Shown here one piece after another: positions 11,007 to 56,099 of a stretch of DNA of 64,000 bases. Origin of the DNA: Thermoproteota archaeon (GTDB lineage: Archaea; Asgardarchaeota; Njordarchaeia; Njordarchaeales; Panguiarchaeaceae); contig JANJXX010000001.1 in assembly GCA_024720975.1 (NCBI GenBank), forward strand, positions 80,970 to 144,969, written 5' to 3'. The position numbers were made by a program, and so were the translations under genes. The notes beneath the pieces are model-generated. The model ran no database searches. It was given only the letters and a program-made list of their open reading frames with translations, and had not been told where the DNA came from. Positions within the stretch are counted from its first letter, which is position 1. Each line of letters starts with the position of its first letter.

Positions 11007-11105
11007 CATTAGAGTAATACATTAAATGTCTTCCCTTAAAAACCTAATTGAAATTTTATAATAGAAGTATTAAAATATGCTTGCGACGGCGAAGGGAGAA
11101 ACGGG

Positions 11106-11570: not shown

Positions 11571-11640
11571 AATCGAAAGAATTCATCTATTCAATTATTT
11601 TTTATTTTGCTTACCTTTATTGTCTATCCATTATGTCTTC

Positions 11641-12246: not shown

Positions 12247-12258
12247 TGCGGAACACCG

Positions 12259-13164
12259 TTATGTAGAGAGTATCTCCACGATCTCATTTCTCATACTCAT
12301 AAAGTCGCGTATCATGAGACCTACGGGTACCTCCGCTGAGAATATGGCCACGATTACTGTTTCTCTTGGAAGTTCTGATAGAACTAAATAGCCCAAATCT
12401 GAATTGATAATTATCTCCTTTAGTTGTTCGAGAGCCATACTGGATACTACGTGCAGCGCGTGCTTCACGATAACAGTCGATGCTGCAGCAATTTCAACAT
12501 CGGCTAGGGCTATGTCACGATACATCGAGAGCAGTGTCACGTTGCCCTCACGAGAGAGCACAGCGGCAGCTTTCAAGTACTCATTTATTGCAAAATATCG
12601 CTCGAGTATCCTTGATTCTTTAACTATGTTAATTTTTTCCTGGAGCTCCTGGGGAACTAATGCCACAAAAGCCGCTCCAGCAATTTCAGCGTGGACCCCT
12701 GCTGTTATTGGTACTTCTGGCACTGGGATTTCAATAGATTTTCCTTCAATTTCAAGGGATATTGGGGCACTCTCAAGTGGAGGTCGCTCTCTCGGAGTAA
12801 CAGTCTCTATAGTTGGCGTCATTACCTTAGTTTCAACTGCAACTGTGATAGCTTCAGGCGGCTTAGTCGTTATAACCCTTAAATATCCTTCCGCTCTCAG
12901 TCTCTCCAGTATTGACCACATGTCGTATGACGATATGGGAATACCTTTATCCCTCATTTTTTTAGTTATTTCATCTACGCTTGACTTTCCTAGCATCCCC
13001 ACTAATTCTTCAGCGTCACTGGGGAGAATTCTAAGGCGCCTTACAGTTTTTAGTATCCTATCTATCAATTCATCACGACTTACCCAGGGACTCGAGTCGT
13101 AAACTTGATGTGTCCTTTGTTCGTGTTTCTTGCGAGTTACTATTGAGGTTTCACTTGCACTCAC
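12259..13164 (-). CDS. Winged-helix plus Roadblock/LC7 (MglB-like) domain protein
   Basis: The N-terminal region (MWSILERLRAEGYLRVI) looks like a wHTH. The C-terminal ~100 aa (AAAVLSREGNVTLLSMYRDIALADVEIAAASTVIVKHALHVVSSMALEQLKEIIINSDLGYLVLSELPRETVIVAIFSAEVPVGLM) follows the Roadblock/LC7 pattern. Confidence 0.65.
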   Translation of the reverse strand: MSASETSIVTRKKHEQRTHQVYDSSPWVSRDELIDRILKTVRRLRILPSDAEELVGMLGKSSVDEITKKMRDKGIPISSYDMWSILERLRAEGYLRVITTKPPEAITVAVETKVMTPTIETVTPRERPPLESAPISLEIEGKSIEIPVPEVPITAGVHAEIAGAAFVALVPQELQEKINIVKESRILERYFAINEYLKAAAVLSREGNVTLLSMYRDIALADVEIAAASTVIVKHALHVVSSMALEQLKEIIINSDLGYLVLSELPRETVIVAIFSAEVPVGLMIRDFMSMRNEIVEILST

Positions 13165-13644
13165 AGAGTTCCCCCAGGAATTACTCTTATATAGCTATCA
13201 GTCATCTATTAATACCTGACTTAAAAGAATATTTAAAGGCTGAGGTTCAGAGTCTGCCCCCATTCTAGGAAAACCAAACAACAAGAGTTGCTCCTTTTTA
13301 CACCAAAGATCGTAAAATGAGAGTCTTATCATTGACCTAGTTGCTTAAGACGAATAACTGCTCATGAGATTTTAGGTCTTTATTACCTTGAATAATTAAA
13401 ACTGGAGAAGAATGCAATAATGAAAACGGAGCAATATTCGCAATATACTGACATAGTTAAAATCTCACGAAGCGAATTGGTAAAGTCTCACTAATCAAGT
13501 TAGTTATGCAAAATTGGGCCACCGTCATCCTGTATTGGATGACTTGAGCATAGTCTATTCCTAAATGTCGTGTGTCAAGGCGCATTTTTATTCAAAACTT
13601 AGAATTTTCTAAAGAGTATTAAAGGCTGCCGTTGGTGAAGCATT

Positions 13645-25472: not shown

Positions 25473-26114
25473 TTGAAAACCGTAGGGGGCTCTCCTTTGA
25501 ATAAGATAAAGCATTTTACCTTCAAAGTAGTGGTAATTGGCGATGAAAAAGTAGGCAAAACGACTCTGTGCAAGAACTTCCTTTGGGGAATATCTCAACA
25601 TGAGTACAAAAGCGCGATGGGAGCAGATTTTTATATGTACCCCTGGTATTCCTACCTCGATGAGCTCAAAACGAAATTGCATGTAAGATGGTTACTATTT
25701 GACTTAACTGGTCAATTTTTTGAGTTCCAGACAATTCGACCACTGTTTTATAGAGGTGCGCATGCAGCCATTATTGTCTTCGATATCTCAAGACCAGAAA
25801 CATTCAAATCTATCCCAGTGTGGATATATGAATTTTGGCGAGACTCTTCTCCAGGTGCTGTTGAAAAAAGGCCATTTATAATTGCTGGCAACAAGGCTGA
25901 TCTACGGGGGACGGTAGAGAATTGCCTACCTCGAGAACTTGCGGAGGATTATGTTAAACGAGTAGCAAAGGGTTTGAATTTCGAGCCTGCCTATGTTGAA
26001 GTATCAGTTTTGCATGGCTGGAACACTGAAGACTTACTCAAAAAGCTTCTGATAGCTATATTAAAGTATTATGGATACACAGATATGCTATTGAAGACCA
26101 GCGGGGAGAAGTAA
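25473..26114 (+). CDS. Ras-superfamily (Rab/Ras-like) small GTPase
   Basis: G1 GDEKVGKTTL, G3 DLTGQ, G4 NKAD and a G5-like EVSVL are present in canonical order and spacing. The switch I region reads YKSAMGADF against the Rab pattern Y-x-S-T-I-G-x-D-F. An alternative in-frame TTG start at 25497 gives MNKIKHFTFKVVVIGD. Confidence 0.8.
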   Translation: MKTVGGSPLNKIKHFTFKVVVIGDEKVGKTTLCKNFLWGISQHEYKSAMGADFYMYPWYSYLDELKTKLHVRWLLFDLTGQFFEFQTIRPLFYRGAHAAIIVFDISRPETFKSIPVWIYEFWRDSSPGAVEKRPFIIAGNKADLRGTVENCLPRELAEDYVKRVAKGLNFEPAYVEVSVLHGWNTEDLLKKLLIAILKYYGYTDMLLKTSGEK

Positions 26115-30426: not shown

Positions 30427-32097
30427 TCATTCTTCAGTGTGAAACTCTAAGTGTTTTGCAACAATTTTGAGAGCCCTCCGTGGTAGATCTTCCAGGCTTC
30501 GTATTCTGACTAGGAACCCTCCTTCCCTCTTTATGCTTTCTAGGTCAAGCATTTTGCCACTCGCACCTTCAGCTTCTATATGAAGAAAATACAAAGTTTG
30601 CCTTCTCGAGAGTCTTCGCAATAATTCTTCAGCTTCCTTCTTGTTGTATATTGCCGCGTCACTAAGAACTATAATCAGTACGCGTCCCCTGCCCTTGAGA
30701 ACCCTAAGAATCTCTTCGGTGGGTAGGTGAGTTCCACCGTTTTGGTGAATCATTAAAGTGTCCTCTATTTTTTCCCTGTTGCGTGTAAACGGGCATACAT
30801 AACCTCTATTAGAGAAGTTTACGACACCAATAGAACTGCCCATGCTCAGGGCGCATTCAGTAATTCCAAATGCAGCTACTAATGCTATATCGAATTTTGA
30901 ACCTATTGGATATTTTATTCCTAGCTTCTTATTCAGTGCTTCCTGCTCTTTTAGACTCTCCCTGGATGTTCCAGGAATTTGACTCATCGAGCCTGAAGAG
31001 TCTATCACTATCAAAATGTCTGGAACTATCCCTCGCACAATATATGGTGATGTTTCTATGCGCTCCCATTTCTTTGTTGTGTACCCAGGAATCATTGCGG
31101 GAGATATGCTTGTTGATACGTACGGGTCCAGCTTTTCGATAGGATCATATACATCCCAAGTTGCTGGATAGTCCACCTCGTAACGTTTACTGATGTTCTG
31201 AGAGCCAATAATTACTTTTACGAGCTTCCTGGATCGCTCACGATACCAAAATCTAAGAATTTCACTCGGGATGGCAGCAACAGTACTAAATAGAGCCGGA
31301 GCTGCTGTAACTGTGTCACCTTCGAATGTCTTATAGATCATTTTTATAATTCTCTCGAAAATAAACGGTCCTGCGTCGATTTGAACTGCAAGAATTGGTA
31401 TGAATTCTCTCAGATAGTCGTATGTGAACTGAGAGGTTATCGGAGCTAACTCTATAGGCTTAAAAAAGTTTGCTATGTATGCAGCTAAATCACCTGCTAT
31501 TTTCGGCCAAGATGTTGGACTTGTTACGTTCTTAGTGAATATAATCTCATATAACCTTCCACCAATCTCCCTTGACTTTTCATCAGTTATGTGAAATATT
31601 TCCTCGCCTAGCATCAGGTTGTATGCGTGCATAACTGGTTTTGATAGAATACCAAGCCCCGAAAACGATTTTTTCAGAAGCTTTAAGCCGCGGACTACTG
31701 CCTCTGGACTAATATGAGAGACATGGAAGTCGGCTAAGAGTTCTATGAGTATCGTAGCTGCTGCTAAGCCAGTTACAACATCTGAGTTATTGATTGCAGA
31801 GAGAATTATTTGTAATGCTCTGGCTTCATTAGCAGGACAGAAAGTTCTGTACGCAAAAACCTTTAGTATAGCATATCTAAGTAGTGCTTCTGCATTCCCC
31901 TCCTTTAACAGTTTCAATCTATTAGCGATAAATATCAACTTACGGTTTCTCCTATCAAAGACAAATTTTGGACCGCGAAAGATAGATAATTTTATCGTGA
32001 GCGGAATTTTAGGATTCGTACCTAAGTCACTTAGTATGCTTTCGTTAACCTTTTTTACTAGCCTCTCTAGCCTTTTTCTCGTTAGGAGACTTCGCAT
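30427..32097 (-). CDS. VWA-domain protein (C-terminal MIDAS) with a ~350-aa N-terminal region of unknown function
   Basis: The MIDAS motif ILIVIDSSGSMS and downstream VWA strands (LIIVLSDAAIY) are present. The start overlaps the AAA+ gene stop by 16 nt. Confidence 0.75.
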   Translation of the reverse strand: MRSLLTRKRLERLVKKVNESILSDLGTNPKIPLTIKLSIFRGPKFVFDRRNRKLIFIANRLKLLKEGNAEALLRYAILKVFAYRTFCPANEARALQIILSAINNSDVVTGLAAATILIELLADFHVSHISPEAVVRGLKLLKKSFSGLGILSKPVMHAYNLMLGEEIFHITDEKSREIGGRLYEIIFTKNVTSPTSWPKIAGDLAAYIANFFKPIELAPITSQFTYDYLREFIPILAVQIDAGPFIFERIIKMIYKTFEGDTVTAAPALFSTVAAIPSEILRFWYRERSRKLVKVIIGSQNISKRYEVDYPATWDVYDPIEKLDPYVSTSISPAMIPGYTTKKWERIETSPYIVRGIVPDILIVIDSSGSMSQIPGTSRESLKEQEALNKKLGIKYPIGSKFDIALVAAFGITECALSMGSSIGVVNFSNRGYVCPFTRNREKIEDTLMIHQNGGTHLPTEEILRVLKGRGRVLIIVLSDAAIYNKKEAEELLRRLSRRQTLYFLHIEAEGASGKMLDLESIKREGGFLVRIRSLEDLPRRALKIVAKHLEFHTEE

Positions 32098-33743
32098 TGT
32101 CCTCCCAATGCATCAACAATTGCATCCAAAGTATCGTGCCACAAAGTGAATGCTTTTAGTATTACTGGCGCATTGTCTCTATCATCCACTACAATGATCT
32201 CAAAAATCTCTGACCCCTTATCTATTCTTATCGAGGCGGGCGGGTTTAAAGTGCTAGATATATCTCTGCCGAGTATTTGCGATAGCTGAGCTATGTTTTG
32301 TTTCCATGTTTTAAATTCGGTCAATACCTTCTTTCCATTTTCACGTAGTTGTGACGTATAGAATCTTACTAGGGCTGAGTATTGAATTGGATTTAGCTTT
32401 CCCTTGGCTTTCTCCAAAATTTCGTTTATTCTAGCTTTTTCGCGCAATTCTATGCTAGATTTTAACTCATTAACAGTGTTAATATATTTGTCCTCGAGGA
32501 AATAGTCTATGAATGGTTCAAGCTCAAACTTCACCACTATGTCGTCTTCTCGCACGTTCTTTATCGTTTTAATCATTCGCGGATCAACTTTTCCTGCCTT
32601 CAGATTCTCATAAGCCTGTATTATTGGGAGCCTTTGCAGGAAGTTTCTGAGGACAGATTCAACTATATGTTTCGCAAATCTGAATCTGTCGAAACCAAAT
32701 TCTTCTAGATGTTTGTCGGAGAATCTCAGACGATGCCATATGACGTATGGAGCTACTGTAACAACAACACTTAGTGGGACAGTTCTAAGACCCATAAGCC
32801 AAGCGAGAGCTTTTGCATATCTAGCTAGGTCCCTCTGAGCCCTAACACTCAACGGTGTGTAAACATACTTGCATACAGTATCAAGGTTCTCAAATTGACA
32901 ACCTACACATATTTTTGAGCCCATCTCCACGAATATTCCTGTTTCCTTGTCTACACGGTCACATAAGGATATTTCTTTTGATAAGATGCTTATGAACATC
33001 TGTGCTGCTGGCTCTAAAGGCATTGCTTCGACGTATGCCCAAGCATCTACTAATTCATTTATTGACAACACCGCTGGAACATCTTTCCTCAATACTCTGT
33101 CGTCCGGCAACAAAACTATCTCGTTCATATCATCTAGAAGTGGCGATTTTACAACAACAGCTATCCCGAATCTGTCTAGGAGTGGCATGCTTAGAGGGAA
33201 AGTACCTACATCACGTGGGTTTAATGTCGCGTAGAGAACAAATTTTCTCGAAGCAAATACGGCATCAAAATATTTTACTAGACCCTCACCGAGAAGGCTT
33301 AAAACGACATCTTGAGCGCCTGGAGATAGTCTATTTATTTCATCTATTATCTTCCAGAATGACCTGATAAAGCGCCTCCATATGACCTCCTCCTCACCCT
33401 CCTTGACAAGCTTGCCTAGGTGGAGTCGTCCAACAATTTTCTCCTCTATTAGTTGCGGATTGGCCCTAAGGATTGATGCCTCGACTTCTTCTAGTGACAT
33501 ACCAGTTAACAGCCTGCCAAGGTACTTTATTAGAGCAGTCTTTCCGTAACCATAACCACCCCATAAGAGCATTGCTCCGTTTCCAACGATGGCATTCAGT
33601 ACTGCTAACCCAGCGATTAGAGGTGCTCTAAATACCCCATTCGGAGAATCTATTTCTAGGTACTTTGTATGAACGAAAAGTCTCTCTTTCTCTAGAATTT
33701 TGAGGGCTAGAAGTATTTTGTCTCTGAGTTCTTCGTGATTCAA
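32082..33743 (-). CDS. MoxR/CbbQ-like AAA+ ATPase with a long Cys-containing C-terminal extension
   Basis: Walker A LLWGGYGYGKTAL and a Walker B / MoxR-type IDEINRLSPGAQDVVLSLL are present. About 250 extra C-terminal residues include CDRV...CVGC...C. Confidence 0.75.
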   Translation of the reverse strand: MNHEELRDKILLALKILEKERLFVHTKYLEIDSPNGVFRAPLIAGLAVLNAIVGNGAMLLWGGYGYGKTALIKYLGRLLTGMSLEEVEASILRANPQLIEEKIVGRLHLGKLVKEGEEEVIWRRFIRSFWKIIDEINRLSPGAQDVVLSLLGEGLVKYFDAVFASRKFVLYATLNPRDVGTFPLSMPLLDRFGIAVVVKSPLLDDMNEIVLLPDDRVLRKDVPAVLSINELVDAWAYVEAMPLEPAAQMFISILSKEISLCDRVDKETGIFVEMGSKICVGCQFENLDTVCKYVYTPLSVRAQRDLARYAKALAWLMGLRTVPLSVVVTVAPYVIWHRLRFSDKHLEEFGFDRFRFAKHIVESVLRNFLQRLPIIQAYENLKAGKVDPRMIKTIKNVREDDIVVKFELEPFIDYFLEDKYINTVNELKSSIELREKARINEILEKAKGKLNPIQYSALVRFYTSQLRENGKKVLTEFKTWKQNIAQLSQILGRDISSTLNPPASIRIDKGSEIFEIIVVDDRDNAPVILKAFTLWHDTLDAIVDALGGQCEVS

Positions 33744-35310: not shown

Positions 35311-36228
35311 TTGAGAGATTTTCCAAGTATCATAAATGAGCTGCTAAATGCATTCAGAGAAAACTTTGAGAGATCTGGAAATGTTTGGGGATTTGAAGTT
35401 GAAATTCCCTATATTCAAGAACAAAAGTTCATATCCAATGGAAGAATGCTGGCTCTATCCACAAACGAAATTTTGATAAGAGCAATAAAGGAGGCAATTT
35501 TTGAATTCTTAATTCACGAGAACGCTAAATATCTTGATGCTAAACTACTTAAATCAGTAGAACTCAAAAGATTCGTGGAAAATAATGTCGCAAAAAACAT
35601 GGAGAAGTATCTGAGTATACTTAGGAGACTTAACCACTTAGCACAAGCCAAGAATATAAGCTTTGTACACCTTGCTGCCTCAGTTGCTCCTGAGATTATG
35701 CACTTCAATCCTAGTGCTCATATATCAGTGATTTCACCTGTCCTCGAAAAACTGAGCTCAATTCCATGTGAGGAGATTTTAGTTTATGATCCGATCGAAT
35801 ACCTCATACTTAAAGCATACGAAGCCCGTATAGGCAAGAAAGTTTATCACATTCTAGAAAAACTCAGTTTTGAAAAGCGTTCACTAAGCGAGAGGTTTAT
35901 CATCAAAGATCCTTGCATATTGACTAGAAAAGCTAACATAAACTTGCGCAACTATGTCAACAATATTCTGGAGAATCTCATACACCACCCACTATCCGGC
36001 AGTTTGACTATCTGCTGCGGGGAATTCATGTGGATAACCGCACCAAAAATCGCATTGAATAACGCTGGAGAGGTTTTGAGGGCATTGTCAAGCTATTCGC
36101 CAAGGATTCTGACTCTTTGTCCTAGCGCAACTTTCTTATTTAGCGTTGCGAAGCGGTTCTTTACTGACCTTCAAAATGTTAAAATTGTTGATCTAACAGA
36201 AGTCATTACGACTGGAGAATCACTATGA
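35311..36228 (+). CDS. Hypothetical protein, upstream partner of the Cas4-like nuclease
   Basis: The TTG start is preceded by GGTGC plus 5 nt. The 3' end overlaps the next gene by 4 nt (ATGA). No motif recognised. Confidence 0.55.
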   Translation: MRDFPSIINELLNAFRENFERSGNVWGFEVEIPYIQEQKFISNGRMLALSTNEILIRAIKEAIFEFLIHENAKYLDAKLLKSVELKRFVENNVAKNMEKYLSILRRLNHLAQAKNISFVHLAASVAPEIMHFNPSAHISVISPVLEKLSSIPCEEILVYDPIEYLILKAYEARIGKKVYHILEKLSFEKRSLSERFIIKDPCILTRKANINLRNYVNNILENLIHHPLSGSLTICCGEFMWITAPKIALNNAGEVLRALSSYSPRILTLCPSATFLFSVAKRFFTDLQNVKIVDLTEVITTGESL

Positions 36229-36998
36229 ACGCTATGGAGGTTATTGAGAAACTCAAGAAGTTGTTAGTTGAAGCTGGTCCGAATGATGCATTAACTCAAC
36301 TCGCAAATGAACTTAAACTCAATAAGCAAGATGCTTTTGCACTTGCGCAGAAAAGTATTGAGATAATAATCAAAACTAAGTTATTGCAAGCTCTTACAGC
36401 CCAACTTGAGGAAGCCAAACCCCCTCTCGAGAAAATCAATGTGACAGATTTAGCATTTCCTTGCTTGAAGCATGCATTCTACTCAAAGAAGTTCGTGAAC
36501 GAGAGGAGAGGAAAATTTAGCGAGCTTGTGACGCTCTGGGTCGGCACAAAACTACATGAAGTTAAGATACTTAACCAACATGAAGTCGAGGTTGAATATA
36601 ATGATATCTATGGTAGGGTTGATGGGTATGGCGATGGCGTTATACTTGAGCTAAAGACGACAAGAAAAATTCCACCGCAACCATTTCCTCACCACTTAAA
36701 GCAAGTTAACTACTATCGCGTCCTCCTAGAGAGAAACAATTACCCGGTGGCATTTGCTGTGATACTTTACGTTAACATAGCCAATTCCACAGCAAAGGCA
36801 TTTTTGATCCTCTTTGAACAAAGTCTTGAAGACACTGAGAGAGAAATGATCGAGAGAAAGGAGAGGCTGGTGAACGCGCTGAAATCTGATACACCTCCAC
36901 CATCTATACCCGAAGAGCCCTGGGCATGCGACTACTGTGACTTTGCATACCTATGTGGGCTACAGAGAGAAACACCACCGAGGAAAGATCTGCTCTAG
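36225..36998 (+). CDS. Cas4/RecB-like PD-(D/E)XK nuclease with a 4-Cys cluster (stand-alone, no CRISPR context)
   Basis: N-terminal Cys motif FPCLKHAFY, then GTKLHE, motif II YGRVDGY, motif III ILELKT, QxxxY (LKQVNYY), and C-terminal CDYCDFAYLC. Confidence 0.8.
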   Translation: MNAMEVIEKLKKLLVEAGPNDALTQLANELKLNKQDAFALAQKSIEIIIKTKLLQALTAQLEEAKPPLEKINVTDLAFPCLKHAFYSKKFVNERRGKFSELVTLWVGTKLHEVKILNQHEVEVEYNDIYGRVDGYGDGVILELKTTRKIPPQPFPHHLKQVNYYRVLLERNNYPVAFAVILYVNIANSTAKAFLILFEQSLEDTEREMIERKERLVNALKSDTPPPSIPEEPWACDYCDFAYLCGLQRETPPRKDLL

Positions 36999-47076: not shown

Positions 47077-47721
47077 TTGAAAGAGAGCTTTATGCTAGTT
47101 TGCCCTTACTGCAAAAATCAGGAGGAAATTCACTTGAGCGATTTTCAACATAGTTTTGGCGGCTTAAGAAGGTTAGCCATAGTACATAAGGATCACGCTT
47201 TAATAGTAGACATCGACTCGTCATTCTCTATCCGTGCTGCATATATTACATCTTTTGCAAATGTCATAGGGCAGCCGTTAGTTTTCAAACACTTTAGGGT
47301 ACTTACGGATGTCATATTCACCAAATATTTCGAGTTTATGACTCTCTGGCCAGATAGTAAATTAATTGACATACGCGCCTGCCCAAGTTGCATTCCACAT
47401 TTATATGATGTTCTTAATATGGCAGTAGACAGTCTACAATATCGCAGCGGAAGTTTTGCAAATGTTTTATCAGCATCTGATAAAATGTCCTTCGTAGTTA
47501 TAAGGAAACCACACTTGGTTTTGCTTGGACTTATAGATTCGAAATTTGATGAAAGCAAAAAACTTTGGTTTAATGCAATTGCCGATACTTATGCTACCTC
47601 ACCACCAAAAACAGAAGTCTTAGTTAGAATAATCGAATATTTGGCTCCAAAAATCACACACATGCCCACAGAATCTCATATCTATAAGTTACGGACGATA
47701 CTTGCTGGTGGTATGCTATGA
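47077..47721 (+). CDS. Hypothetical protein with split zinc-ribbon cysteines
   Basis: CPYC at the N-terminus and CPSC about 100 aa later. The TTG at 47077 is preceded by GGTGC plus 6-7 nt; the ATG at 47092 is an alternative. Confidence 0.5.
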   Translation: MKESFMLVCPYCKNQEEIHLSDFQHSFGGLRRLAIVHKDHALIVDIDSSFSIRAAYITSFANVIGQPLVFKHFRVLTDVIFTKYFEFMTLWPDSKLIDIRACPSCIPHLYDVLNMAVDSLQYRSGSFANVLSASDKMSFVVIRKPHLVLLGLIDSKFDESKKLWFNAIADTYATSPPKTEVLVRIIEYLAPKITHMPTESHIYKLRTILAGGML

Positions 47722-47988
47722 CCATATTAAACTGCGTGGCTTGCTAAAACATCGCGGTTCCTCCGGTAAAGCTGCCCTTCTCTGCATTTGGAGCATGTGC
47801 GTGAGATTTCATGTAAGCTAAACTGCTACACTAAAACCATTTAATCTGTGCTTATAGCAAGGTGGAATCTCAAACCTTCTAAAAAAACTAATGATCTTAT
47901 GCTAGTTGCTGATTGTCTGTCGCTAGCTAACTGTAACTTATAAATTTTTTCACTCATTAATTCTTTTACAGCTTAGTGGTGCTTATAA

Positions 47989-48654
47989 TTGTACTTCGCA
48001 AAAGCGAAAGTTGACATCGAAAGGCTCATTGAGAAAGATAAGAATTTTCTCCTAGTCTGGATTCCAATGGCTAAGATATTATACTCAACTAGTTCTAAAG
48101 AGCATGAGATGTGCTTCGATGCATACACGCCACCGAAGATAGGGCAGCCTGAGGCATACGTTCTTTTAATGCGTAATCCTAAACACGTGAAAGTGGAATC
48201 TGGAAAACCACCTATAGGATTGATTCTAGAACCAATAGTAAACGGCAAGCATATATTCGAAATACTGAAGGAACTAAAGAAAATAGCATCTAAGTTTGTT
48301 GAAGAAGCGAGTGAAGCTATGCGAAGAATCCCGCGAAGGATCATTCACCAGCTGTTCATACCACTCCAGGCTGCAGAGGCGAGAAAGTTAACAGCATCCG
48401 ATGAATACATTCAGATTTTCTCTCTTCTTGATGCAATAGAATTGGAATATGATTCAATTTTTATTTCTGAGGAAATTTTGTATTGGCCCCTGCTAATACA
48501 CCAAAAGGAGAACGTTGTGTTCGAACCTGCCTTACAAGAAAATCCGAGTAGAAGCTATACATACATCCACAAAAAGTTTAACTTAGTGAAGATTTATGTT
48601 AATGAGGGCATTCAAGGATGTAAATTTGGAGGAAATCGTTCGAATTCGACTTGA
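47989..48654 (+). CDS. Hypothetical protein
   Basis: 221-aa ORF whose TTG start is preceded by GGTG plus 7 nt. No motif recognised. Confidence 0.45.
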   Translation: MYFAKAKVDIERLIEKDKNFLLVWIPMAKILYSTSSKEHEMCFDAYTPPKIGQPEAYVLLMRNPKHVKVESGKPPIGLILEPIVNGKHIFEILKELKKIASKFVEEASEAMRRIPRRIIHQLFIPLQAAEARKLTASDEYIQIFSLLDAIELEYDSIFISEEILYWPLLIHQKENVVFEPALQENPSRSYTYIHKKFNLVKIYVNEGIQGCKFGGNRSNST

Positions 48655-49321
48655 ATTCCTCAAAAAACAAAAAGGGAAGCATAGTAGAGCGTTTATGCTT
48701 ATATCTGCAGGTATACTCATGCAATTACCTACGGACTTTATACCAATGGATGTGCTGGCACCTACCTTTCCAGGTGATTTTGTCCTTGCTACCCTGTTTA
48801 CTTTTGTCATAATATCTAGTGCTCTTATTCTTTTCGGAGCAACATTTCTAGGAATTTTCACACACGGTGCTTTGAGGATTAATTACCTCTCACTCTTGGA
48901 TATGATACGACTACTCGCATTTTTCACTGTGGTGCTTGCTGGATTTTCAACTATTGTTTGGATAGCACTTGGAGTTTCGTGCATAATGAGAGAAATTTCC
49001 GAGGAGGTGATACTTGGACTTCTTTTCTGGGCATATTATACGGATAGAATGATTGGGATTGTTATGTCCTTCTCTTTTCTCTTGCTCATAGTGACTCTGA
49101 TAAAGAATATAAAAATACTCCAAAAAATCCTTAAGATTCGACTGGTGCACGTCATATATATACTCTGCCTACTTAATCTTTTAGCGTTCCTCCTTAACCT
49201 TCTATCGATTTTCGCGAGCTTAGTCTTGGTTTTGCCAACATCGATCTTCATGACCTATAACCCAAAGTTTGTATACATGTACGCATACACGGATCTGAAC
49301 TTATCTAGCCTTGAAAAATAA
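48596..49321 (+). CDS. Integral membrane protein (~6 TM), function unknown
   Basis: Hydrophobic helices run throughout. The true start may be the internal ATG at 48695 (MLISAG), just past the upstream stop. Confidence 0.55.
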   Translation: MLMRAFKDVNLEEIVRIRLEFLKKQKGKHSRAFMLISAGILMQLPTDFIPMDVLAPTFPGDFVLATLFTFVIISSALILFGATFLGIFTHGALRINYLSLLDMIRLLAFFTVVLAGFSTIVWIALGVSCIMREISEEVILGLLFWAYYTDRMIGIVMSFSFLLLIVTLIKNIKILQKILKIRLVHVIYILCLLNLLAFLLNLLSIFASLVLVLPTSIFMTYNPKFVYMYAYTDLNLSSLEK

Positions 49322-49392: not shown

Positions 49393-50967
49393 ATGTCATA
49401 CAAAGAGATAGATCCACTAAGAGTTCCAGTAAAGATAGATGAACTGGTTGAGCAGGCGTACAAAGAACTCAAACCCTTCTTCGAACCAGAGAGTATAGCT
49501 GTTATAGGAGCTTCTCGAGACGAGTGGAGTATAGGGTGGGTGGTTTTCAAAAATCTCGCTGAGAACTACAAGAATAAAAAACTTAAGGCCCGCATCTATG
49601 GAGTTAATGTTAAAGGTGGTGAGCTCTTTGGCTATAAACTTTACAAGTCCATAATGGATATTCCTGATTCTATCGACCATGCTGTAATAGTAGTGCCTGC
49701 CAAGTTTGTTTTAGATGTTGTCGAGGAATGTGGAAAGAAAGGTGTAAAAGCTCTTACAATAATTAGTGCTGGATTTTCGGAGATAGGTAATACTGAGCTT
49801 GAGAATAAGGTCATAGAAACTGCTCGAAAGTATGGTATGCGAATAATAGGTCCTAATTGTCTTGGCGTGTTTGATAACTTTGGTGGAGTTGATACACTAT
49901 TCACACCTGAGTTTAAAAAGTATTATGATCAAATGCTACTAACCTCGCCGCGACCAAAACCTGGGGTGATTATGTTTGGAAGCCAATCTGGGGCATTAGG
50001 ATTGGCGATTCTTGATGCTCTTTATGGCGCCGATATTGGAATAGCAAAGTTCGTGAGTTATGGAAACAAAGCAGATGTTGATGAGACAGATCTACTGCTG
50101 TGGTCCCTTAAAGATCCTTATGTAGATGTGATAATGTTGTATATTGAGGGAATAAAGAAGGCTGGACGCCTATTTGTAGAGGTTGCTAAGGAGGTAAGTA
50201 AGAAGAAACCAATTGTGGTTCTTAAGGGAGGTAGAACCCAGGCAGGAGCTCGCGCTGCAGAGTCCCATACAGGTTCACTTGCTGGTGACTATAAAATGTA
50301 TATTGCTGCTTTTAAGAAGATAGGCGCCGTTGTCGTTGAAACATTAGATGAGTTTATCGATACTGTTAAGGCGTTCTCAACTCAACCTCCAGCTAGGGGT
50401 TATAACTTAGCTATCATCACAGACGGAGGTGGTGCAGGACTCTTGGCTGCTGATGCTGCGGAGAAATATGGACTAATAGTAAACCCGCCTAGTGATGAAT
50501 TACTAGCACGACTTAAAGACGGGGTTAACAGAGGTTATATAGTTCCATTCGCAACATTTGCAAATCCAATTGATATCACCGGTTCTGCGACTGATGAAAG
50601 CTTTGTCTATGCATTAGAAGCTGTTCTAGATGATAAAAATACAGATTCCGTGATGATAATAGGACTTCACCATGTTCCTGGTGTCACAGATCAGCTTCCA
50701 AAGAAGCTCGTAGAGGTCATAGAGGAAAAGGACACAAACAAACCCGTCGCATTCTGCACGGTTGGAGGCGCCGACTATGCTGTCAGGTTTAGAAAATCAT
50801 TTGAAGAAGCTGGTATTCCTACGTATCCAACACCAGAGCGTGCAGCCTTAGTTCTTAAAAACTTGGCTGATTATGGATCTTGGCTGGCAAGTTTGGGATT
50901 GTACGAGAGTTACATTAAGGAATGGAAAGAGCGACAAAAATTACGAAAATCCTCAGAGAGCCACTAG
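49393..50967 (+). CDS. NDP-forming acyl-CoA synthetase alpha-subunit-like protein (CoA-binding plus phosphohistidine domains)
   Basis: FFEPESIAVIGASRDEWSIG (CoA-binding Rossmann), IIGPNCLGV, and the phosphohistidine loop AAESHTGSLAG are present. No canonical ACD beta (ATP-grasp_5-like) subunit follows. Confidence 0.8.
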   Translation: MSYKEIDPLRVPVKIDELVEQAYKELKPFFEPESIAVIGASRDEWSIGWVVFKNLAENYKNKKLKARIYGVNVKGGELFGYKLYKSIMDIPDSIDHAVIVVPAKFVLDVVEECGKKGVKALTIISAGFSEIGNTELENKVIETARKYGMRIIGPNCLGVFDNFGGVDTLFTPEFKKYYDQMLLTSPRPKPGVIMFGSQSGALGLAILDALYGADIGIAKFVSYGNKADVDETDLLLWSLKDPYVDVIMLYIEGIKKAGRLFVEVAKEVSKKKPIVVLKGGRTQAGARAAESHTGSLAGDYKMYIAAFKKIGAVVVETLDEFIDTVKAFSTQPPARGYNLAIITDGGGAGLLAADAAEKYGLIVNPPSDELLARLKDGVNRGYIVPFATFANPIDITGSATDESFVYALEAVLDDKNTDSVMIIGLHHVPGVTDQLPKKLVEVIEEKDTNKPVAFCTVGGADYAVRFRKSFEEAGIPTYPTPERAALVLKNLADYGSWLASLGLYESYIKEWKERQKLRKSSESH

Positions 50968-51039
50968 TTACTCGCCTATTTCTATTAGACGCCTTCTACA
51001 GACTAATAGCATTCTCTTCTAGAGCAGGCGTGATTGAGA

Positions 51040-52230
51040 ATGTGTTATCAATTCGAATTTAGCCCTCAAGACTGGGACGCTATTAAGAACTACCCCTACG
51101 CCGGCCTAGACTTTCTAATTGACGACAATCAGAATATAGTCTTTCTCGAAGCAAACGCCGTACCTGGCGGGATTTCCGTTATGGAGAATGTATGTAAATT
51201 GATCCTAGAAAACGCCCCAGGTTTAAGAAAGTTCATGCCGCATACAGAATTTGTCAAACTCTTCACCGATGCTGCACTTACATACTACAGGATTATCAAG
51301 GGAGGAACTCCAAAGCTTGTTCTTGTGACAACCCCATATAAGGGAGATCCTGTCTTAATGCCTGAACGATTATCAATCGTGGAGGAGTTCAAAAGACGCG
51401 GAGTACAAGCTGTTATATGCCATCGGGAGCGATACACTGTTCAAGATAATAAAATACTTTTACGAGCTGGATCAAGGTTTTTGTGTCCCGATTTAATAAT
51501 CAGGAGAAATACCATCTTCCCAAAGAATGTTTCACAACCGGTAATTAACAAAAGCGAGGTGGGCCTAATAACCGGTAGTAAATACAGGACTTATCGCATT
51601 GTCAGTGACTTTTTAAGCAGACAAAAGGAGGTTGCACTAAAAATTCCGGAAACATACTTTGCAAAGAGCGTAAGGAAAGCTATCACTATTTCCGAAGAAA
51701 TCCTCTCTAGAGGCAAGGAGGTTGTTGTAAAGCCTAATAAAGGGGAAAGAGGCAAAGACATAATTTTTATAAGATCCGCATCAGATGCGGAAACAAAACT
51801 CAAACGAGCCTTTCATTCAAAAAGAATAACACTAGTCGTTCAAGAAAGAATACAGACGCTACCATTCTGCAGAGAGGGTCGGCAGTATGTCTTTGATATT
51901 AGGACCTATGCGTATTTAGGTCAGTTTGTAGGCGCGCATATAAGACGCTCTAGTGTGCCTATAGGAAGCTCAAGCATTGAAGACTATGGCGTGAGCAATA
52001 TATCTCATGGCGGTACTTATGTACCGTTGCTATCCACATCTGATGGTCCGTGTGTTATTAAATGGAGAGAAACCGCTAAGCGTCTATACCTTTTTAAGCA
52101 CATTATCGTTGATAATTATGCTTTCAGTCTACCTCACCATATGTGGAAAATGCTTAAGAGGGCTACAGAGTTCGTTGTTCGCGCAATTGGATATGCTTTA
52201 AATGGGTTCTTAAATTATGCCAAGATCTAA
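51040..52230 (+). CDS. ATP-grasp amidoligase, apparently circularly permuted
   Basis: The normally C-terminal Mg-binding segment GLDFLIDDNQNIVFLEANAVPGG sits at the N-terminus. It is followed by a pre-ATP-grasp-like Rossmann segment, then VVVKPNKGERGKDI, VVQERI, FDIRTYAY, HIRRS...SNISHGG. The protein ends where that N-terminal segment would normally begin. The ATG at 51040 lies 6 nt after GCGTGA. Confidence 0.65.
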   Translation: MCYQFEFSPQDWDAIKNYPYAGLDFLIDDNQNIVFLEANAVPGGISVMENVCKLILENAPGLRKFMPHTEFVKLFTDAALTYYRIIKGGTPKLVLVTTPYKGDPVLMPERLSIVEEFKRRGVQAVICHRERYTVQDNKILLRAGSRFLCPDLIIRRNTIFPKNVSQPVINKSEVGLITGSKYRTYRIVSDFLSRQKEVALKIPETYFAKSVRKAITISEEILSRGKEVVVKPNKGERGKDIIFIRSASDAETKLKRAFHSKRITLVVQERIQTLPFCREGRQYVFDIRTYAYLGQFVGAHIRRSSVPIGSSSIEDYGVSNISHGGTYVPLLSTSDGPCVIKWRETAKRLYLFKHIIVDNYAFSLPHHMWKMLKRATEFVVRAIGYALNGFLNYAKI

Positions 52231-53194
52231 CACAACTCGAGATTTTCCATCGAATTGGAAATTACTTAAACATATCCTGGCACTATACAGAGACGTAAAT
52301 CTGGTACTTCGAGAAATTAATGAAAGTCATTCCATAAACCCAAGTGTAGCCACTATATTGATGAGAATAATCAACCAACTAAGGGCTATAAGCATGCTAC
52401 GAGAGACGGTTTCAATGTATTTTCTAGCGTACTTACATCTCAATATATTCCTGTCGGAGGATTCATTAAGGGACATACAACAATTAAAGAGATTTCTAGT
52501 AACGGTTCAAAATGCCCTCGAAAAAATCATTGCAAGCAATGGCAAACTGATGGTACTGCATAGAAAGGACGCGACTATAAGTTTGAGGCACTCGGCAGTT
52601 AGTCTATTCGTACCAGATGGCTTTGATGCGCTCATACCAAGCTACAAATACATTCCAGGAACTACTCCAGTAATCCTAACTGCACCGCACGCTGCTCCTC
52701 CCCAATCAGACACTTTTACTGGAAGACTGGCTTTATTGGTGGCTAAAAGGACATCATCGCATGCTTTAATTTCGACTATTCCTAGGTTTATCTCTGATCC
52801 AAATAGAATGTTAGGACGCATATGGCCATTCCGAAGGATCTTGGAAAAACTTATTGATGAGAATAAAATCAGATTGATTATTGATCTTCATTCATCAAAC
52901 AATGCAAAAGAAAATTCCGTTGAGATAGGTACATGGTATGGTTTCTCCATTTTAAGAAAACACCTGAATATGCTATTGGATACTCTCGAGGAGAATAACA
53001 TAACATATACAATAAACTCTAGATTCACCGGAGGTGATATAACTTTTTATCATTCGAATATTCCATTCGTCAGTGCCATTCAGCTTGAGATATCTGGAGG
53101 ACAGGACAGAAAAAGTCTACTCAAAATTGCGCACTCATTGGTTGAATTTATCAGAAGGTTTAATGGCGTGAGAAAAAATGGAGGAATCCGCTAG
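52217..53194 (+). CDS. N-formylglutamate amidohydrolase (FGase)-family hydrolase with an extra N-terminal helical domain
   Basis: LTAPHAAPP, PRFISDPNR (cf. SR-x-x-ID-x-NR) and LIIDLHS motifs are present. It overlaps the upstream gene by 14 nt. Confidence 0.65.
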   Translation: MPRSNTTRDFPSNWKLLKHILALYRDVNLVLREINESHSINPSVATILMRIINQLRAISMLRETVSMYFLAYLHLNIFLSEDSLRDIQQLKRFLVTVQNALEKIIASNGKLMVLHRKDATISLRHSAVSLFVPDGFDALIPSYKYIPGTTPVILTAPHAAPPQSDTFTGRLALLVAKRTSSHALISTIPRFISDPNRMLGRIWPFRRILEKLIDENKIRLIIDLHSSNNAKENSVEIGTWYGFSILRKHLNMLLDTLEENNITYTINSRFTGGDITFYHSNIPFVSAIQLEISGGQDRKSLLKIAHSLVEFIRRFNGVRKNGGIR

Positions 53195-54650
53195 GGACTT
53201 TAGGATAAGGGTGGGCATAGAAAATGAGCTAATGACCGTCAATGATAAGGGTTTTATTATTCCCGCAGCAACTCTAATAGTAAACAAGATCATAGATGAT
53301 ATAGTATCTAAAAAGGTCGATGCAAGCGTCTTAAATAAGTACTTGTACGGCATCCAGTGGGAGCCGCATCCAGCGCAACTAGAGATCGTTACGCAGCCAT
53401 TCAACTACCCAAACGTCGAAAAAAATATGCGGTTCATATATGATTACCTAGACAATGCAGCTGGGGAAAAGAATGTTAAGATCTACCTCGGAAGTATGCA
53501 TCCAATACAATCAAGTCCATTTCCGATAAATGGCACACATGTTAGTATATCTATAGTACCAAAACGAAGAAAAGTAATGCCTAGAAAGTTTCTAGCATAT
53601 GTTCATAACAACATAAGGCGCTACCTACCGGAGCTTATAGCGTTAACAGCAAATTCCCCCGTAATGGCAAGTAAATACTCAGGGTTCGCTAGTTCTAGAC
53701 TTTATTATAGCAGGGTCCTTAAACCAAGTCGCTACGCCATAATTAAAAGAAGTAAAACAACAGTGATCCCGCGTGAGAAAAGGGCACTCTTAAAGTATGC
53801 CTTTATCTTCACGCGAGATAAGAGATATGAAAATAAAGTCATCGTAAATCAAATCGGAATGCGTCTGTTAGAGCTTACGCCTCGTGGTCCACATACAAAT
53901 ATTGTCGAAGATCATGATTCAAGTCCGGAGTCAAGTAGGGTTGAAGTGAGATTTATTGATAATCCATCAACACTAGAGTACTTAACAGACATAACCAATA
54001 TTCTAATTGGTGTGTCACTGGAAGCTATTGACATGCTTAGAAAGAACGAGAAGATTCCAAATAGGGCTTTTCTAAGCGAGAATAGACTGCGCGCAATCAG
54101 AGACGGCATTCAAGCTGAGTTTCTAGGAGAGGATGGAGAGCCCATACCTGCCAGAGAATCTGTACTGGGGATGATAAATCGTATAAAACTTTATTTAGAT
54201 TCTTTGGGTATAAAGCTTAAGACCTCCCTTGGGGATGGCATACCGGAAATTGAGAAATTTGGAAAACCAGTAATAGTATCAGAATGCGAAACCATCCAAG
54301 AGTATCTTAACCAAGGTAAAGTCTTCCTCCGGATTCAATTATCTTCCAACCGCACTTTAATAGATTTCTCGGGAAATAGGGAAGCCATAGGTGCGCGGGT
54401 AATATACGGCCTTGTTTTTCCTGAATATAAACTAGAATGGACCACATACTCACGAAATATTATCTCTAGATTCACAAGGATTTATACATCCTACTGGATT
54501 CTAACGAAGCGCGGGTACGTGAAGATACACCCTGATGATAAAGTAATCTCAGCAAAAACGCCTATTGGAGTTCTAACTCAAGTATTTGGCTCTATATACA
54601 ATCTTGCTAAAGAATCTCAGCAAAAAATAACTGAATACATCGGAGATTGA
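53178..54650 (+). CDS. GCS2 / YbdK-type carboxylate-amine ligase
   Basis: The N-terminus IRVGIENELMTVNDKG fits the G-x-E-x-E start of glutamate-cysteine ligase family 2, and the GS-like length fits. It overlaps the upstream gene by 17 nt. Confidence 0.6.
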   Translation: MEESARDFRIRVGIENELMTVNDKGFIIPAATLIVNKIIDDIVSKKVDASVLNKYLYGIQWEPHPAQLEIVTQPFNYPNVEKNMRFIYDYLDNAAGEKNVKIYLGSMHPIQSSPFPINGTHVSISIVPKRRKVMPRKFLAYVHNNIRRYLPELIALTANSPVMASKYSGFASSRLYYSRVLKPSRYAIIKRSKTTVIPREKRALLKYAFIFTRDKRYENKVIVNQIGMRLLELTPRGPHTNIVEDHDSSPESSRVEVRFIDNPSTLEYLTDITNILIGVSLEAIDMLRKNEKIPNRAFLSENRLRAIRDGIQAEFLGEDGEPIPARESVLGMINRIKLYLDSLGIKLKTSLGDGIPEIEKFGKPVIVSECETIQEYLNQGKVFLRIQLSSNRTLIDFSGNREAIGARVIYGLVFPEYKLEWTTYSRNIISRFTRIYTSYWILTKRGYVKIHPDDKVISAKTPIGVLTQVFGSIYNLAKESQQKITEYIGD

Positions 54651-54654
54651 GCTT

Positions 54655-54888
54655 CTATTGCTGGGATTTTTCAAGTTCTGATTGTATCTGGCCAAACTTC
54701 TTAATCAAAATTAAGGCTTTAAGCTTCTGATGACCTTGGGCATGGACGATATATCTATCAAGCTTTCTTATCCAGCGATTTATAACTGCCAGAGCCTCTA
54801 ACTCATTTCCGGATTCTAAGAGAGCATCCACTTCTTTGAGAGCTTTTTCGGCCTCATTCAACAAGTTTTGTGAATCTTGATCACTCAT
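54655..54888 (-). CDS. 77-aa helical protein coupled to the epimerase gene
   Basis: Its start overlaps the epimerase stop by 4 nt (ATGA). It encodes a helical hairpin-like sequence ending ...SELEKSQQ. Confidence 0.5.
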   Translation of the reverse strand: MSDQDSQNLLNEAEKALKEVDALLESGNELEALAVINRWIRKLDRYIVHAQGHQKLKALILIKKFGQIQSELEKSQQ

Positions 54889-55997
54889 TTCCGTCCCTCA
54901 AATTTCATCGAACTTATAGTGTACTTCTTCAAGGTATCCTCCTTCAGTTCGATTCCTAACCCTGCTTTGCTGGGCAGAGTATTCTTCAAACCATCAAATT
55001 CAATACCGAGTGCTACTTGGTCCTTCATAAATAAATATCCATCAAGATCTGAAAAGGCGATAGCGCGAGCGGCTACGGCTACATGTACGCCGGCGGCAAT
55101 GGCTATTTGAGTCTCGCTCATGCATCCAATTTGGCACTTAATGCCATAGACATCGCAAATATCAGCTATTTTCAGGGCGTTTAGTATTCCCCCAGCTTTC
55201 ATTATTTTAATGTTAATCATATCTGCTGCTTCTCTCTTTATAACTTCAATAGCATCCCTTGGCGTATGCACTGATTCATCTGCCATTATAGGTATTTCCG
55301 TGTGCATACGAACCTCGCGCAAACCGTCAATATCTCTCCAATGAACTGGTTGCTCACAAAATTCTATATCTAAGCCTTCAACAGCCCTTAGAACCCTTAT
55401 TGCCTGCTTAGTGGTGTAGCCTTGATTAGCATCTATCCTGATTCTAATGTCATCACCGACTGTTTGTCGTATTTTCTTGAGTAACTCTATATCCTTAGGT
55501 GCGTTTGTACCGATCTTTATCTTAAGGATTCTTATCCCTTGTTCTATATATTTCTGAGCTTTTTGTATTGCTCTATCGTGAGGCATTATTCCTATCGTTA
55601 CTGAGGTTTCAAATGAATTTTCAGATGCACCTAAAAGTCTGTATAATGGTACATTGTACTTCTTAGCAACAATATCAAATATAGCCATATCCAATGCGGC
55701 CTTTGCTGATGGATTTCCTATGATCGAATTGTCTATGTTTTCGATTATTCTCCTGTATTCTAAAGGACAGGCACCCAGAAGCAGTCCCTTTAGCTTGGAA
55801 ATAACCCCAAGAACTGTCTCTGTAGTTTCGCCAGTTATTCTAGCTGACGGTGCTGCTTCACCCAAGCCAATGATTCCTTCATCTGTGTAGATTTTAACTA
55901 TTACGCCAGTGTGTTCTACAGATGCTCCAAGGGCTATTCGAAACTCCTCTACTAGTGGTATGCGAAAGGAGTATGCCTCTATTTTATTAATTTCCAT
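54885..55997 (-). CDS. Enolase-superfamily dipeptide epimerase (L-Ala-D/L-Glu epimerase / MLE subgroup)
   Basis: MEINKIEAYSFRIPL is a typical N-terminal capping domain. The barrel motifs ILKIKIG, IRIDANQGY, FCEQP, IMADES and IKIMKAGG give the K-x-K ... D ... E ... D ... K pattern. I place the start at the ATG at 55997, after GGGAG; the tracked ORF extends to 56075. Confidence 0.8.
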   Translation of the reverse strand: MEINKIEAYSFRIPLVEEFRIALGASVEHTGVIVKIYTDEGIIGLGEAAPSARITGETTETVLGVISKLKGLLLGACPLEYRRIIENIDNSIIGNPSAKAALDMAIFDIVAKKYNVPLYRLLGASENSFETSVTIGIMPHDRAIQKAQKYIEQGIRILKIKIGTNAPKDIELLKKIRQTVGDDIRIRIDANQGYTTKQAIRVLRAVEGLDIEFCEQPVHWRDIDGLREVRMHTEIPIMADESVHTPRDAIEVIKREAADMINIKIMKAGGILNALKIADICDVYGIKCQIGCMSETQIAIAAGVHVAVAARAIAFSDLDGYLFMKDQVALGIEFDGLKNTLPSKAGLGIELKEDTLKKYTISSMKFEGRK

Positions 55998-56099
55998 CGA
56001 CACTCCCATTATTTGAACTAATATGTAGTGGAATTCTACGTAAATATAAGAATTCAGAGTATGCAGAAAAGTCATTGAAAAATATACCTGGGTATTAGA

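Follow-up and report, generated by a model that had tools for sequence, protein, structure and literature searches.

A trio of overlapping genes on the + strand of an archaeal contig (51040-54650) constitutes a conserved unit that encodes a circularly permuted ATP-grasp ligase, an FGase-like hydrolase and a GCS2-like ligase. The trio lies in a window of 64,000 nucleotides (positions 80,970 to 144,969 of contig JANJXX010000001.1, assembly GCA_024720975.1), to which all coordinates without a locus prefix refer. We see an even chance that it acts as a small-molecule glutamyl-amide module, either resembling the glutathione pathway or performing transient gamma-glutamylation. The invariant part of the module is the GCS2-like ligase together with an enzyme that breaks glutamyl-amide bonds.

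A previous reading of the window from its letters (hereafter the sequence-only reading) had joined six adjacent genes into a candidate ribosome-independent pathway for a peptide or a peptide tag. These comprise a gene resembling the alpha subunit of acyl-CoA synthetase (ACD alpha), the trio, and a convergent pair encoding a dipeptide epimerase and a helical protein of 77 amino acids (aa). All six open reading frames (ORFs), their coordinates and their domain families were reproduced using the ORF list, Pfam and NCBIfam. The same holds for the overlaps of 14 nt between the ATP-grasp and FGase-like genes (52217-52230) and of 17 nt between the FGase-like and GCS2-like genes (53178-53194). The trio at the end of the + strand genes, with an amidohydrolase and two ATP-dependent amide ligases that are unrelated to each other, proved to be a genuinely co-conserved unit. 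For these three, a ribosome-independent amide or peptide pathway is a reasonable proposal; the six-gene peptide-or-tag pathway is only partly supported. Several assemblies made independently for this species, labelled Candidatus Korarchaeota, share the six-gene order, which is thus not an assembly artefact. In GTDB, the closest further genome carries the label Njordarchaeota.

Distribution and genomic partners of the GCS2-like ligase

One genome of every GTDB species was scanned, which yielded 65 ligase loci (designated by L numbers), and neighbours were counted over 59 species-level loci. The ORFs of each locus were searched with the window proteins using phmmer and jackhmmer, neighbours were clustered, and representatives were annotated with Pfam and NCBIfam. 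An enzyme was scored as a partner if it was encoded no more than three genes from the GCS2-like ligase.

The 65 loci are essentially all archaeal. Hosts belong to the Njord-, Baldr-, Heimdall-, Hod-, Hermod-, Thor-, Borr- and Sif-archaeota, and further ones to Methanodesulfokora, Geothermarchaeota and a few Methanopyri/Methanobacteriota metagenome-assembled genomes (MAGs). The exceptions are L068, on a 1.6-kb contig binned as Rhizobiaceae, and L077, from a WOR-3 bacterial MAG, which is the weakest match (E 8e-4).

An enzyme of a type acting on glutamyl amides was found within the chosen distance of the ligase in 54 of the 59 loci. It is an FGase-like hydrolase alone in 21 loci, the gamma-glutamylamine cyclotransferase GGACT/AIG2 combined with GATase1/Peptidase_C26 in 17, GGACT combined with an Ntn-like 'MCRLLG' protein in 7, GGACT alone in 6 and GATase1 alone in 2; FGase and GGACT occur near the same ligase only once. 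In total, the FGase-like hydrolase is found beside the ligase in 22 and GGACT in 31 of the 59 loci, and Peptidase_C26, the family of the gamma-glutamyl hydrolases, accompanies it in 19. Among the five remaining loci, L028 is a 1.5-kb contig, L076 and L077 hold remote homologues, L037 in fact has an FGase gene that was masked by the ORF filter, and L056 has no partner on its 4.8-kb contig.

The replacement of one non-homologous glutamyl-amide enzyme type by another beside the ligase is the strongest functional clue obtained. Four such cleaving types interchange beside one ligase, which narrows the candidate chemistry, and this pattern, absent from the sequence-only reading, points specifically to glutamyl-amide chemistry. 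Because the ligase is paired family-wide with an enzyme that cleaves glutamyl amides, the glutamyl group appears to be transient or turned over, suggesting that it may serve as a transient handle or a cycled moiety rather than only as a stable end product.

The complete trio is present in 12 species-level loci, whose hosts are Njord-, Baldr- and Kor-archaea and unclassified MAGs with a TACK label, and solely in these lineages does the ATP-grasp gene join the core. Two gene orders are seen, ATP-grasp-FGase-GCS2 and FGase-GCS2-ATP-grasp.

Two of the ligase loci come from Methanopyri-type MAGs (L009 and L037, ~8739-13380). There, the ligase gene stands between a gene for a TIGR00375/PHP-type metallohydrolase (MJ0043-like) and genes for an Amidohydro_2 protein, an FGase without N-terminal extension and a small CbiX-type chelatase. 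The 419-aa 'MJ0043_C' protein encoded upstream of the ligase in such loci was considered as a divergent ATP-grasp and rejected (hhalign probability 0.07%); it is the TIGR00375 PHP-type metallohydrolase. Genes for small GTPases of the Ras/Roc/Arf type occur in the window (25473-26114, + strand) and near the ligase in 11 related loci (cluster c9). This recurrence could be due to chance, such GTPases being common in Asgard-like genomes. Their presence agrees with an identity of the window that is Njordarchaeales-like and not classically korarchaeal.

Enzyme classes of the trio

Pfam and NCBIfam scores are given in bits and set against gathering or curated equivalog cut-offs. Besides those of the ACD alpha and the epimerase, all domain matches of the six proteins are weak and partial.

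The GCS2-like ligase (53178-54650, + strand, 490 aa) is matched by Pfam GCS2 with 32.5 bits (cut-off 21), the top-scoring stretch being residues 134-177. The GhExE signature, present as G13-I-E15-N-E17, is invariant in 19 sequences, as are H108, R229 and R254-x-E256-x-R258. Judged by its sequence, the protein is therefore a member of the GCS2/carboxylate-amine ligase superfamily. The AlphaFold2 (AF2) model (pLDDT 89.6) has YbdK (1r8g) as its best fold match, with an E-value of 8e-17 and a TM-score of 0.68 on the target, followed by glutamine synthetases and plant glutamate-cysteine ligase (GCL); PafA and Dop are not among the top 50 structural matches. Residues ~365-490 make up an additional domain, rich in beta structure and ending in a long helix, which is conserved family-wide and has no Pfam match up to E=5. 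The YbdK subfamily model TIGR02050 gives 65 bits against an equivalog cut-off of 176.4, and the GCL equivalog models all remain far under theirs. A word-indexed search with the protein retrieved 25 clusters out of 5.8 billion, and when 1.84 billion representatives were searched exhaustively with a profile, 22 matched at E<=1e-30; ~13 of these are full-length 50%-identity clusters scoring above 400 bits and the remainder fragments. Generic GCS2/YbdK proteins come next, at less than 80 bits. Since scores fall from ~400 bits to this level, we regard the ligases as a small, discrete sequence family.

The FGase-like metallo-amidohydrolase (52217-53194, + strand, 325 aa) scores 39.3 bits with Pfam FGase (PF05013; cut-off 28.9), over residues 204-293 only. 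Invariant in 18 orthologues are H158, P162, D165, R190, D194-x-N196, D223-x-H225, G272-G273-D274-I275 and Q289-x-E291. This score above the gathering cut-off, combined with the invariance of H158, D165, D194, H225 and E291, identifies the protein as a predicted FGase family member; by analogy with the family, we take these five residues to be metal ligands. NCBIfam models, including HutG (TIGR02017), gave no match to the hydrolase of the window, and one Asgard orthologue reaches 27.8 bits with TIGR02017 (cut-off 278.75). The closest solved FGase, 2q7s, is remote (E 0.0015 with the family profile), and some orthologues show weak, sub-threshold matches to poly-gamma-glutamate hydrolase. The extra N-terminal domain reported by the sequence-only reading exists as a helical extension of ~140 residues. 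It is restricted to the Kor/Njord/Baldr/Geotherm clade and has no Pfam match up to E=5.

The FGase-like partner is fused at its C-terminus to an archaeal histone fold in loci of Borr- and Sif-archaeota (PF00808, 2e-9; NF043032, 53 bits, cut-off 50). Such fusions were found at L048:8963-9874 (-) and L033:446-1303 (-), and also in L044, L045 and L051; in one Heimdall MAG (L059:8913-9833, -), an MTH865-like domain takes the place of the histone fold. The histone-fold fusions may point to a chromatin or protein target, and a role directed at chromatin or protein would, if true, be more surprising.

The ATP-grasp amide ligase (51040-52230, + strand) has 396 aa from its ATG, or 398 aa from an alternative TTG start at 51034. 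It passes the Pfam cut-offs of ATPgrasp_YheCD (38.2 against 26.8), ATPgrasp_ST (36.4 against 31.4) and TTL (31.6 against 20.1). Its family consists of only 12 clusters, in all 12 of which D24, E37-x-N39, K231, Q268-E269, R288, N320 and G324-G325 are invariant. The protein belongs to the ATP-grasp superfamily, as it possesses the lysine, the hinge Q/E, the N-x-x-GG motif and the D...E-x-N motif. The order of these elements is unusual: the Mg-binding D...E-x-N motif, at residues 24-39, lies N-terminal to the ATP-binding lysine K231.

Three further observations agree with this order. Residues 165-330 fit the first two thirds of the YheCD, ST, TTL and RimK models, while residues 10-49, within the first 100, fit the C-terminal ends of four ATP-grasp Pfam models. 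In profile searches against the PDB, residues 188-389 align to residues 83-290 of tubulin-tyrosine ligase (TTL) and residues 16-43 to residues 291-337. Finally, the AF2 model (pLDDT 88.9) adopts an ATP-grasp fold that begins with the terminal beta-hairpin of the C-domain. Because of the split TTL alignment, the match of the N-terminus to the C-terminal ends of the models and the position of the hairpin, we conclude that the protein represents a new, circularly permuted ATP-grasp family, a feature that the sequence-only reading had missed. In human glutathione synthetase, the E-x-N ligands (E144, N146) likewise precede the ATP-binding lysines.

The top Foldseek targets of the model are 3k1t, 3n6x, the human, yeast and plant glutathione synthetases, YjfC/YgiC and glutathionylspermidine synthetase (GspS). 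The alignment to 3k1t, a putative gamma-glutamylcysteine synthetase, is nearly full-length (433 columns, E 1e-15, TM-score 0.59 on the query), and the eukaryotic glutathione synthetases align over 350-380 columns (TM-score ~0.5), whereas canonical RimK and Escherichia coli GshB align over only ~260-280 columns. At the sequence level, the best PDB matches are TTL, TTLL7 and PBY1. Searches with Pfam gave no match to the GSH_synth, GSP_synth, CP_ATPgrasp and GshA (PF08886) profiles at E<0.01. The top NCBIfam match is MptN (E 8.6e-14, 51 bits against a cut-off of 350), and neither the rimK family model (35 against 143) nor LysX (20 against 275.6) reaches its cut-off. With E-x-N at residues 37-39 and scores this low, the protein falls outside the canonical, non-permuted RimK/LysX/MptN/CofF class. 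Equivalog assignment of trio proteins to MptN, CofF, LysX, RimK, HutG or YbdK was rejected, all scores being far under the curated cut-offs. Consistent with the sequence-only reading, which had made its proposal depend on this point, the profiles thus assign the trio to no characterised pathway.

Predicted pathway and alternative explanations

The analysis shows to which classes the enzymes belong, that their catalytic residues are conserved and that their genes are linked; the following steps are inferred. The GCS2-like ligase would activate a carboxylate by ATP-dependent phosphorylation; as in characterised GCS/GS-fold ligases, this is most likely the gamma-carboxylate of glutamate. Joining it to an amine, that of a small molecule X, would then yield Glu-X. 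A further amide bond, formed by the permuted ATP-grasp at a free carboxylate, could extend this to Glu-X-Y, and the FGase-like metallohydrolase would remove or recycle the glutamyl part.

Such a scheme resembles two-step glutathione biosynthesis: a gene for a GCS-fold ligase lies beside one for an ATP-grasp that is modelled closest to the permuted ATP-grasps of glutathione metabolism, and two successive ATP-dependent amide bonds are proposed. The trio differs from that pathway in its marginal sequence similarity, in the extra C-terminal domain of the ligase and in the obligatorily linked hydrolase, and the module bears no sign of cysteine or glycine specificity. The likeness to eukaryotic-type glutathione synthetases and to the ATP-grasp 'GshA' of 3k1t is one of fold alignment.

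Transient gamma-glutamylation is employed in putrescine utilisation (PuuA/PuuD) and in the ergothioneine (EgtA/EgtC) and butirosin (BtrJ/BtrG) pathways. The module would share with these the combination of a Glu-adding ligase and a removing enzyme, which in these pathways is a C26/class-I GATase, a class-II amidotransferase or a cyclotransferase, classes that also recur as partners of the archaeal ligase. The gamma-glutamyl cycle follows a comparable logic. Their tailoring enzymes, on the other hand, are not part of the module, PuuA is of the GS type and BtrJ is a canonical ATP-grasp.

Bacterial carboxylate-amine ligases with GATase-like peptidase or AIG2 cyclotransferase neighbours have been predicted to make glutathione-like peptides, not tags (PMC2588565), and linked ATP-grasp and COOH-NH2 ligases often catalyse successive peptide ligations (PMC4431377). 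The bacterial family described by Iyer, Burroughs and Aravind 2008 (PMC2588565) likewise consists of a GCS2-sized ligase next to a GATase-type hydrolase or a gamma-glutamyl cyclotransferase. In contrast to it, the archaeal-only ligase family has the C-terminal domain, the FGase-like alternative and, in the clade of the window, the added permuted ATP-grasp; the two are comparable in neighbourhood logic, and their ligases are related at the superfamily level.

Several points weigh against a small-molecule glutamyl-amide module. The identity of the activated acid as glutamate is inferred from the behaviour of the family and from its neighbours, not from active-site analysis. What FGase proper cuts in glutamate is the N-acyl (alpha-amide) bond and not a gamma-glutamyl one, so that ligation and hydrolysis may concern different bonds. 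Protein recognition could be the task of the additional domains, the C-terminal one in the ligase and the N-terminal helical one in the FGase, and of the fusions to a histone fold, and the top sequence-level PDB matches of the ATP-grasp are members of the tubulin-tyrosine-ligase family. With identities to structures of 12-19% and query-normalised TM-scores of 0.5-0.6, all characterised enzymes are remote.

A literature search, which did not extend to the 2009 amidoligase survey, found no description of the archaeal ligase family, of the FGase as alternative partner, of the permuted ATP-grasp family or of the trio. With the trio, two families are defined, a rare archaeal one of GCS2-like ligases and a new one of permuted ATP-grasps. 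For Korarchaeota and Asgard archaea, the module offers a concrete candidate pathway with two ligases, which would be glutathione-like or work by transient gamma-glutamylation. Little is known about how archaea metabolise low-molecular-weight thiols and small peptides, and a 2020 review of archaeal thiols lists no archaeal glutathione synthetase (GshB) except some Methanobacterium candidates (PMC7278568). A more specific version of the proposal, which we consider rather unlikely, would have Kor-, Njord- and Baldr-archaea produce a glutathione-like compound, a gamma-glutamyl tripeptide or amide, as a so far unrecognised archaeal low-molecular-weight thiol or protectant, by means of a divergent gamma-glutamyl ligase and a circularly permuted eukaryote-style synthetase. 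If true, this would bear on the origin of eukaryotic glutathione metabolism, and the wider Asgard set of ligase, cyclotransferase and amidotransferase-type hydrolase would represent an archaeal gamma-glutamyl cycle.

Reversible protein tagging of a RimK/TTL-like or Pup-like kind, in which one or both ligases add Glu or another residue and the FGase-like hydrolase acts as eraser, is an unlikely alternative to a small-molecule module. It would accommodate the match of the ATP-grasp to Pfam TTL, its TTL, TTLL7 and PBY1 matches in the PDB, the fusion of FGase orthologues to an archaeal histone fold or MTH865-like domain in some Asgard loci, and the extra domain on both ligase and hydrolase; a hydrolase of carboxypeptidase fold could also be an eraser. 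Yet the similarity of the ATP-grasp to RimK and TTL is weak in sequence, its domain order is permuted, and its fold is nearer to small-molecule ligases than to RimK, LysX or TTL. The GGACT and GATase-type partners in the sister clade usually act on small molecules. Neither did a candidate protein target emerge: neighbour clustering over the 59 loci revealed no small ORF conserved with the module, and the 77-aa protein of the window occurs in two close relatives only and has a variable C-terminus. Together with the absence of PafA and Dop from the top 50 folds of the ligase, this distinguishes the module from Pup-PafA-Dop systems and speaks against the peptide tag on a carrier that the sequence-only reading had suggested. 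A LysW-type carrier system is not indicated either, as the LysX score is low and no small acidic carrier is encoded at the locus.

We consider it quite unlikely that the enzymes add and trim a glutamyl tail on a cofactor (pterin, F420, methanofuran or a folate-like compound), comparable to MptN/CofF/CofE or to FPGS with gamma-glutamyl hydrolase. MptN being the top NCBIfam match of the ATP-grasp, the Peptidase_C26 partners, and the family members beside a small CbiX-type chelatase in Methanopyri/Methanobacteriota MAGs are in line with such a role. However, the MptN score is far from its cut-off and CofE- and CofF-like profiles stay under threshold, cofactor-biosynthesis genes are not conserved around the module in the 59 loci, and the lineages that carry it differ greatly in metabolism.

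Flanking genes

The ACD-alpha-like gene (49393-50967, + strand, 524 aa) precedes the trio. It resembles ACD alpha subunits in its CoA-binding, flavodoxin-like and Ligase_CoA_2 domains (Pfam Succ_CoA_lig 172, CoA_binding_2 76 and Ligase_CoA_2 36 bits) and in an SHTGS phosphohistidine loop, present as AAESHTGSLAG as the sequence-only reading had noted. It differs from them by short N- and C-terminal extensions and by a TIGR02717 score of 460 bits, below the equivalog cut-off of 567. In agreement with the claim that a canonical beta subunit is lacking, Pfam annotation of the called genes in the ~0-64 kb window revealed no ATP-grasp_5 (ACD beta) gene. In archaeal ACDs, for example in Pyrococcus, the beta subunit is usually encoded elsewhere or shared. 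The gap between the ACD alpha and ATP-grasp genes is 72 nt and contains no oligo-T tract, and a TATA-like TTTTAAAAAA box is located ~35 nt upstream of the ACD alpha ATG; co-transcription with the trio is possible.

Membership of ACD alpha in the pathway, as the sequence-only reading had it, was not borne out. The protein is an ordinary member of a very large family (>7,000 matches at E<=1e-50), and its gene adjoins the trio in 5 of the 12 trio loci, seven trios being without it. It is adjacent in L013-L015, which are syntenic with the window, divergent on the opposite strand in L021 and part of another gene order in L071; in L032, a remote paralogue is adjacent. A module-specific ACD-alpha subfamily was rejected, as the nearest non-syntenic homologues (54-58% identity) have unrelated gene contexts and the copy in L071 is only 47% identical, no nearer than generic paralogues. 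ACD alpha may be an accessory loosely tied to the module through CoA-ester or organic-acid metabolism.

In ten loci of Loki/Thor/Hermod type (L042, L052-L054, L057, L058, L062, L063, L065 and L075), the ligase gene comes directly after a group of genes, located within ~6 kb on its upstream side, for two 2-hydroxyacyl-CoA dehydratase (HGD-D) proteins, a BcrAD/HgdC-type activator and two VIT1-like membrane proteins; the GGACT and GATase1 genes come after the ligase. These neighbours are a second, non-homologous link to CoA-ester enzymes, perhaps of glutamate fermentation.

Other observations concern ACD alpha itself. L014, which has a full-length ACD alpha gene upstream, also carries a 145-aa ORF resembling ACD alpha immediately downstream of the ligase (L014:11460-11897, +; jackhmmer E 2e-37). 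Directly upstream of ACD alpha in the window (47077-49321, +) are ORFs of 214, 221 and 241 aa without family match, the last of them hydrophobic, which are conserved only in L013-L015. A hydantoinase A/B pair (L082:13072-15548, -) lies ~5 kb from the closest non-syntenic ACD-alpha homologue. The hydantoinase A/B family includes 5-oxoprolinases, so that this proximity touches gamma-glutamyl-cycle chemistry; it is probably coincidental.

Converging on the trio are the genes for the 77-aa helical protein (54655-54888, - strand) and for the enolase-superfamily dipeptide-epimerase-like protein (54885-55997, - strand; 370 aa from the gene-caller start, or 396 aa in a longer ORF to 56075). The start of the former and the stop of the latter overlap by 4 nt (54885-54888). 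The epimerase scores 194 bits with MR_MLE_C and 63 with MR_MLE_N, and possesses K159-I-K161, D189, E215, D239, K265 and D317-L-D319. This corresponds to the motif set of dipeptide epimerases (KxK, three metal ligands, a second Lys and DxD after strand 8), placing it as a predicted dipeptide epimerase of the MLE subgroup. Its nearest PDB relatives are 2p88, 1jpm (YkfB; E 1e-77) and 3jva (Enterococcus dipeptide epimerase; E 4e-75). All these motifs are shared with YkfB, YcjG and TM0006, from which it differs by a score under the equivalog cut-off (284 bits against 500 with NF041118, the L-Ala-D/L-Glu epimerase model) and by its archaeal host without murein. The sequence-only reading had used the absence of murein to set aside a role in murein-peptide recycling. 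The host is indeed an archaeon without murein, but the argument is weak, as peptide-fermenting archaea can import bacterial murein peptides.

For the 77-aa protein, Pfam and NCBIfam gave no family match. Its only two homologues, in L013 and L014, are encoded beside the epimerase, and the three C-termini diverge (...EKSQQ, ...EKNDVD and ...NPEKD); a Pup-like or carrier role was rejected on these grounds. The convergent pair is a separate unit in which the 77-aa gene is coupled to the epimerase, not to the ligases.

A single six-gene pathway, in which ACD alpha, the trio, the epimerase and the 77-aa protein together build, trim and racemise a peptide or a tag on the 77-aa protein as carrier, is very unlikely. 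All six genes are adjacent in the window, L013 and L014, ACD alpha accompanies the trio in three arrangements (L013-15, L021 and L071), and an epimerase with the dipeptide-epimerase DxD could logically act on a dipeptide that the hydrolase sets free. Conservation of the six-gene neighbourhood nevertheless failed: the epimerase and 77-aa genes accompany the module in L013 and L014 only and are missing from all other trio loci, including L015 (56% ligase identity). Since L013 and L014 also retain the unrelated flanking ORFs u214, u221, u241 and u146, their adjacency is explained by recent common ancestry. The epimerase pair is moreover convergent and on the opposite strand, the 77-aa C-terminus is not conserved, and close homologues of ACD alpha have unrelated contexts.

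The least probable alternative is that ACD alpha forms a new acyl-CoA synthetase or acyl-phosphate generator feeding the ligases, with the permuted ATP-grasp as unconventional beta subunit: the missing ATP-grasp_5 gene and the adjacent, co-directional genes would fit, but 7 of the 12 trio loci have the ATP-grasp and no ACD alpha, the ATP-grasp shows a peptide-ligase-type fold and no Pfam match to ATP-grasp_5, and unlinked or shared beta subunits are usual in archaeal ACDs.

A role in a defence system found no support, as PADLOC anti-phage profiles matched none of the six proteins at E<=0.001. Elsewhere in the window (30427-33743, - strand), two large genes, encoding a 553-aa protein with AAA_5 and a 556-aa protein without family, are adjacent to each other and lie near genes for a Cas4-like PDDEXK nuclease (36225-36998) and a radical-SAM protein.

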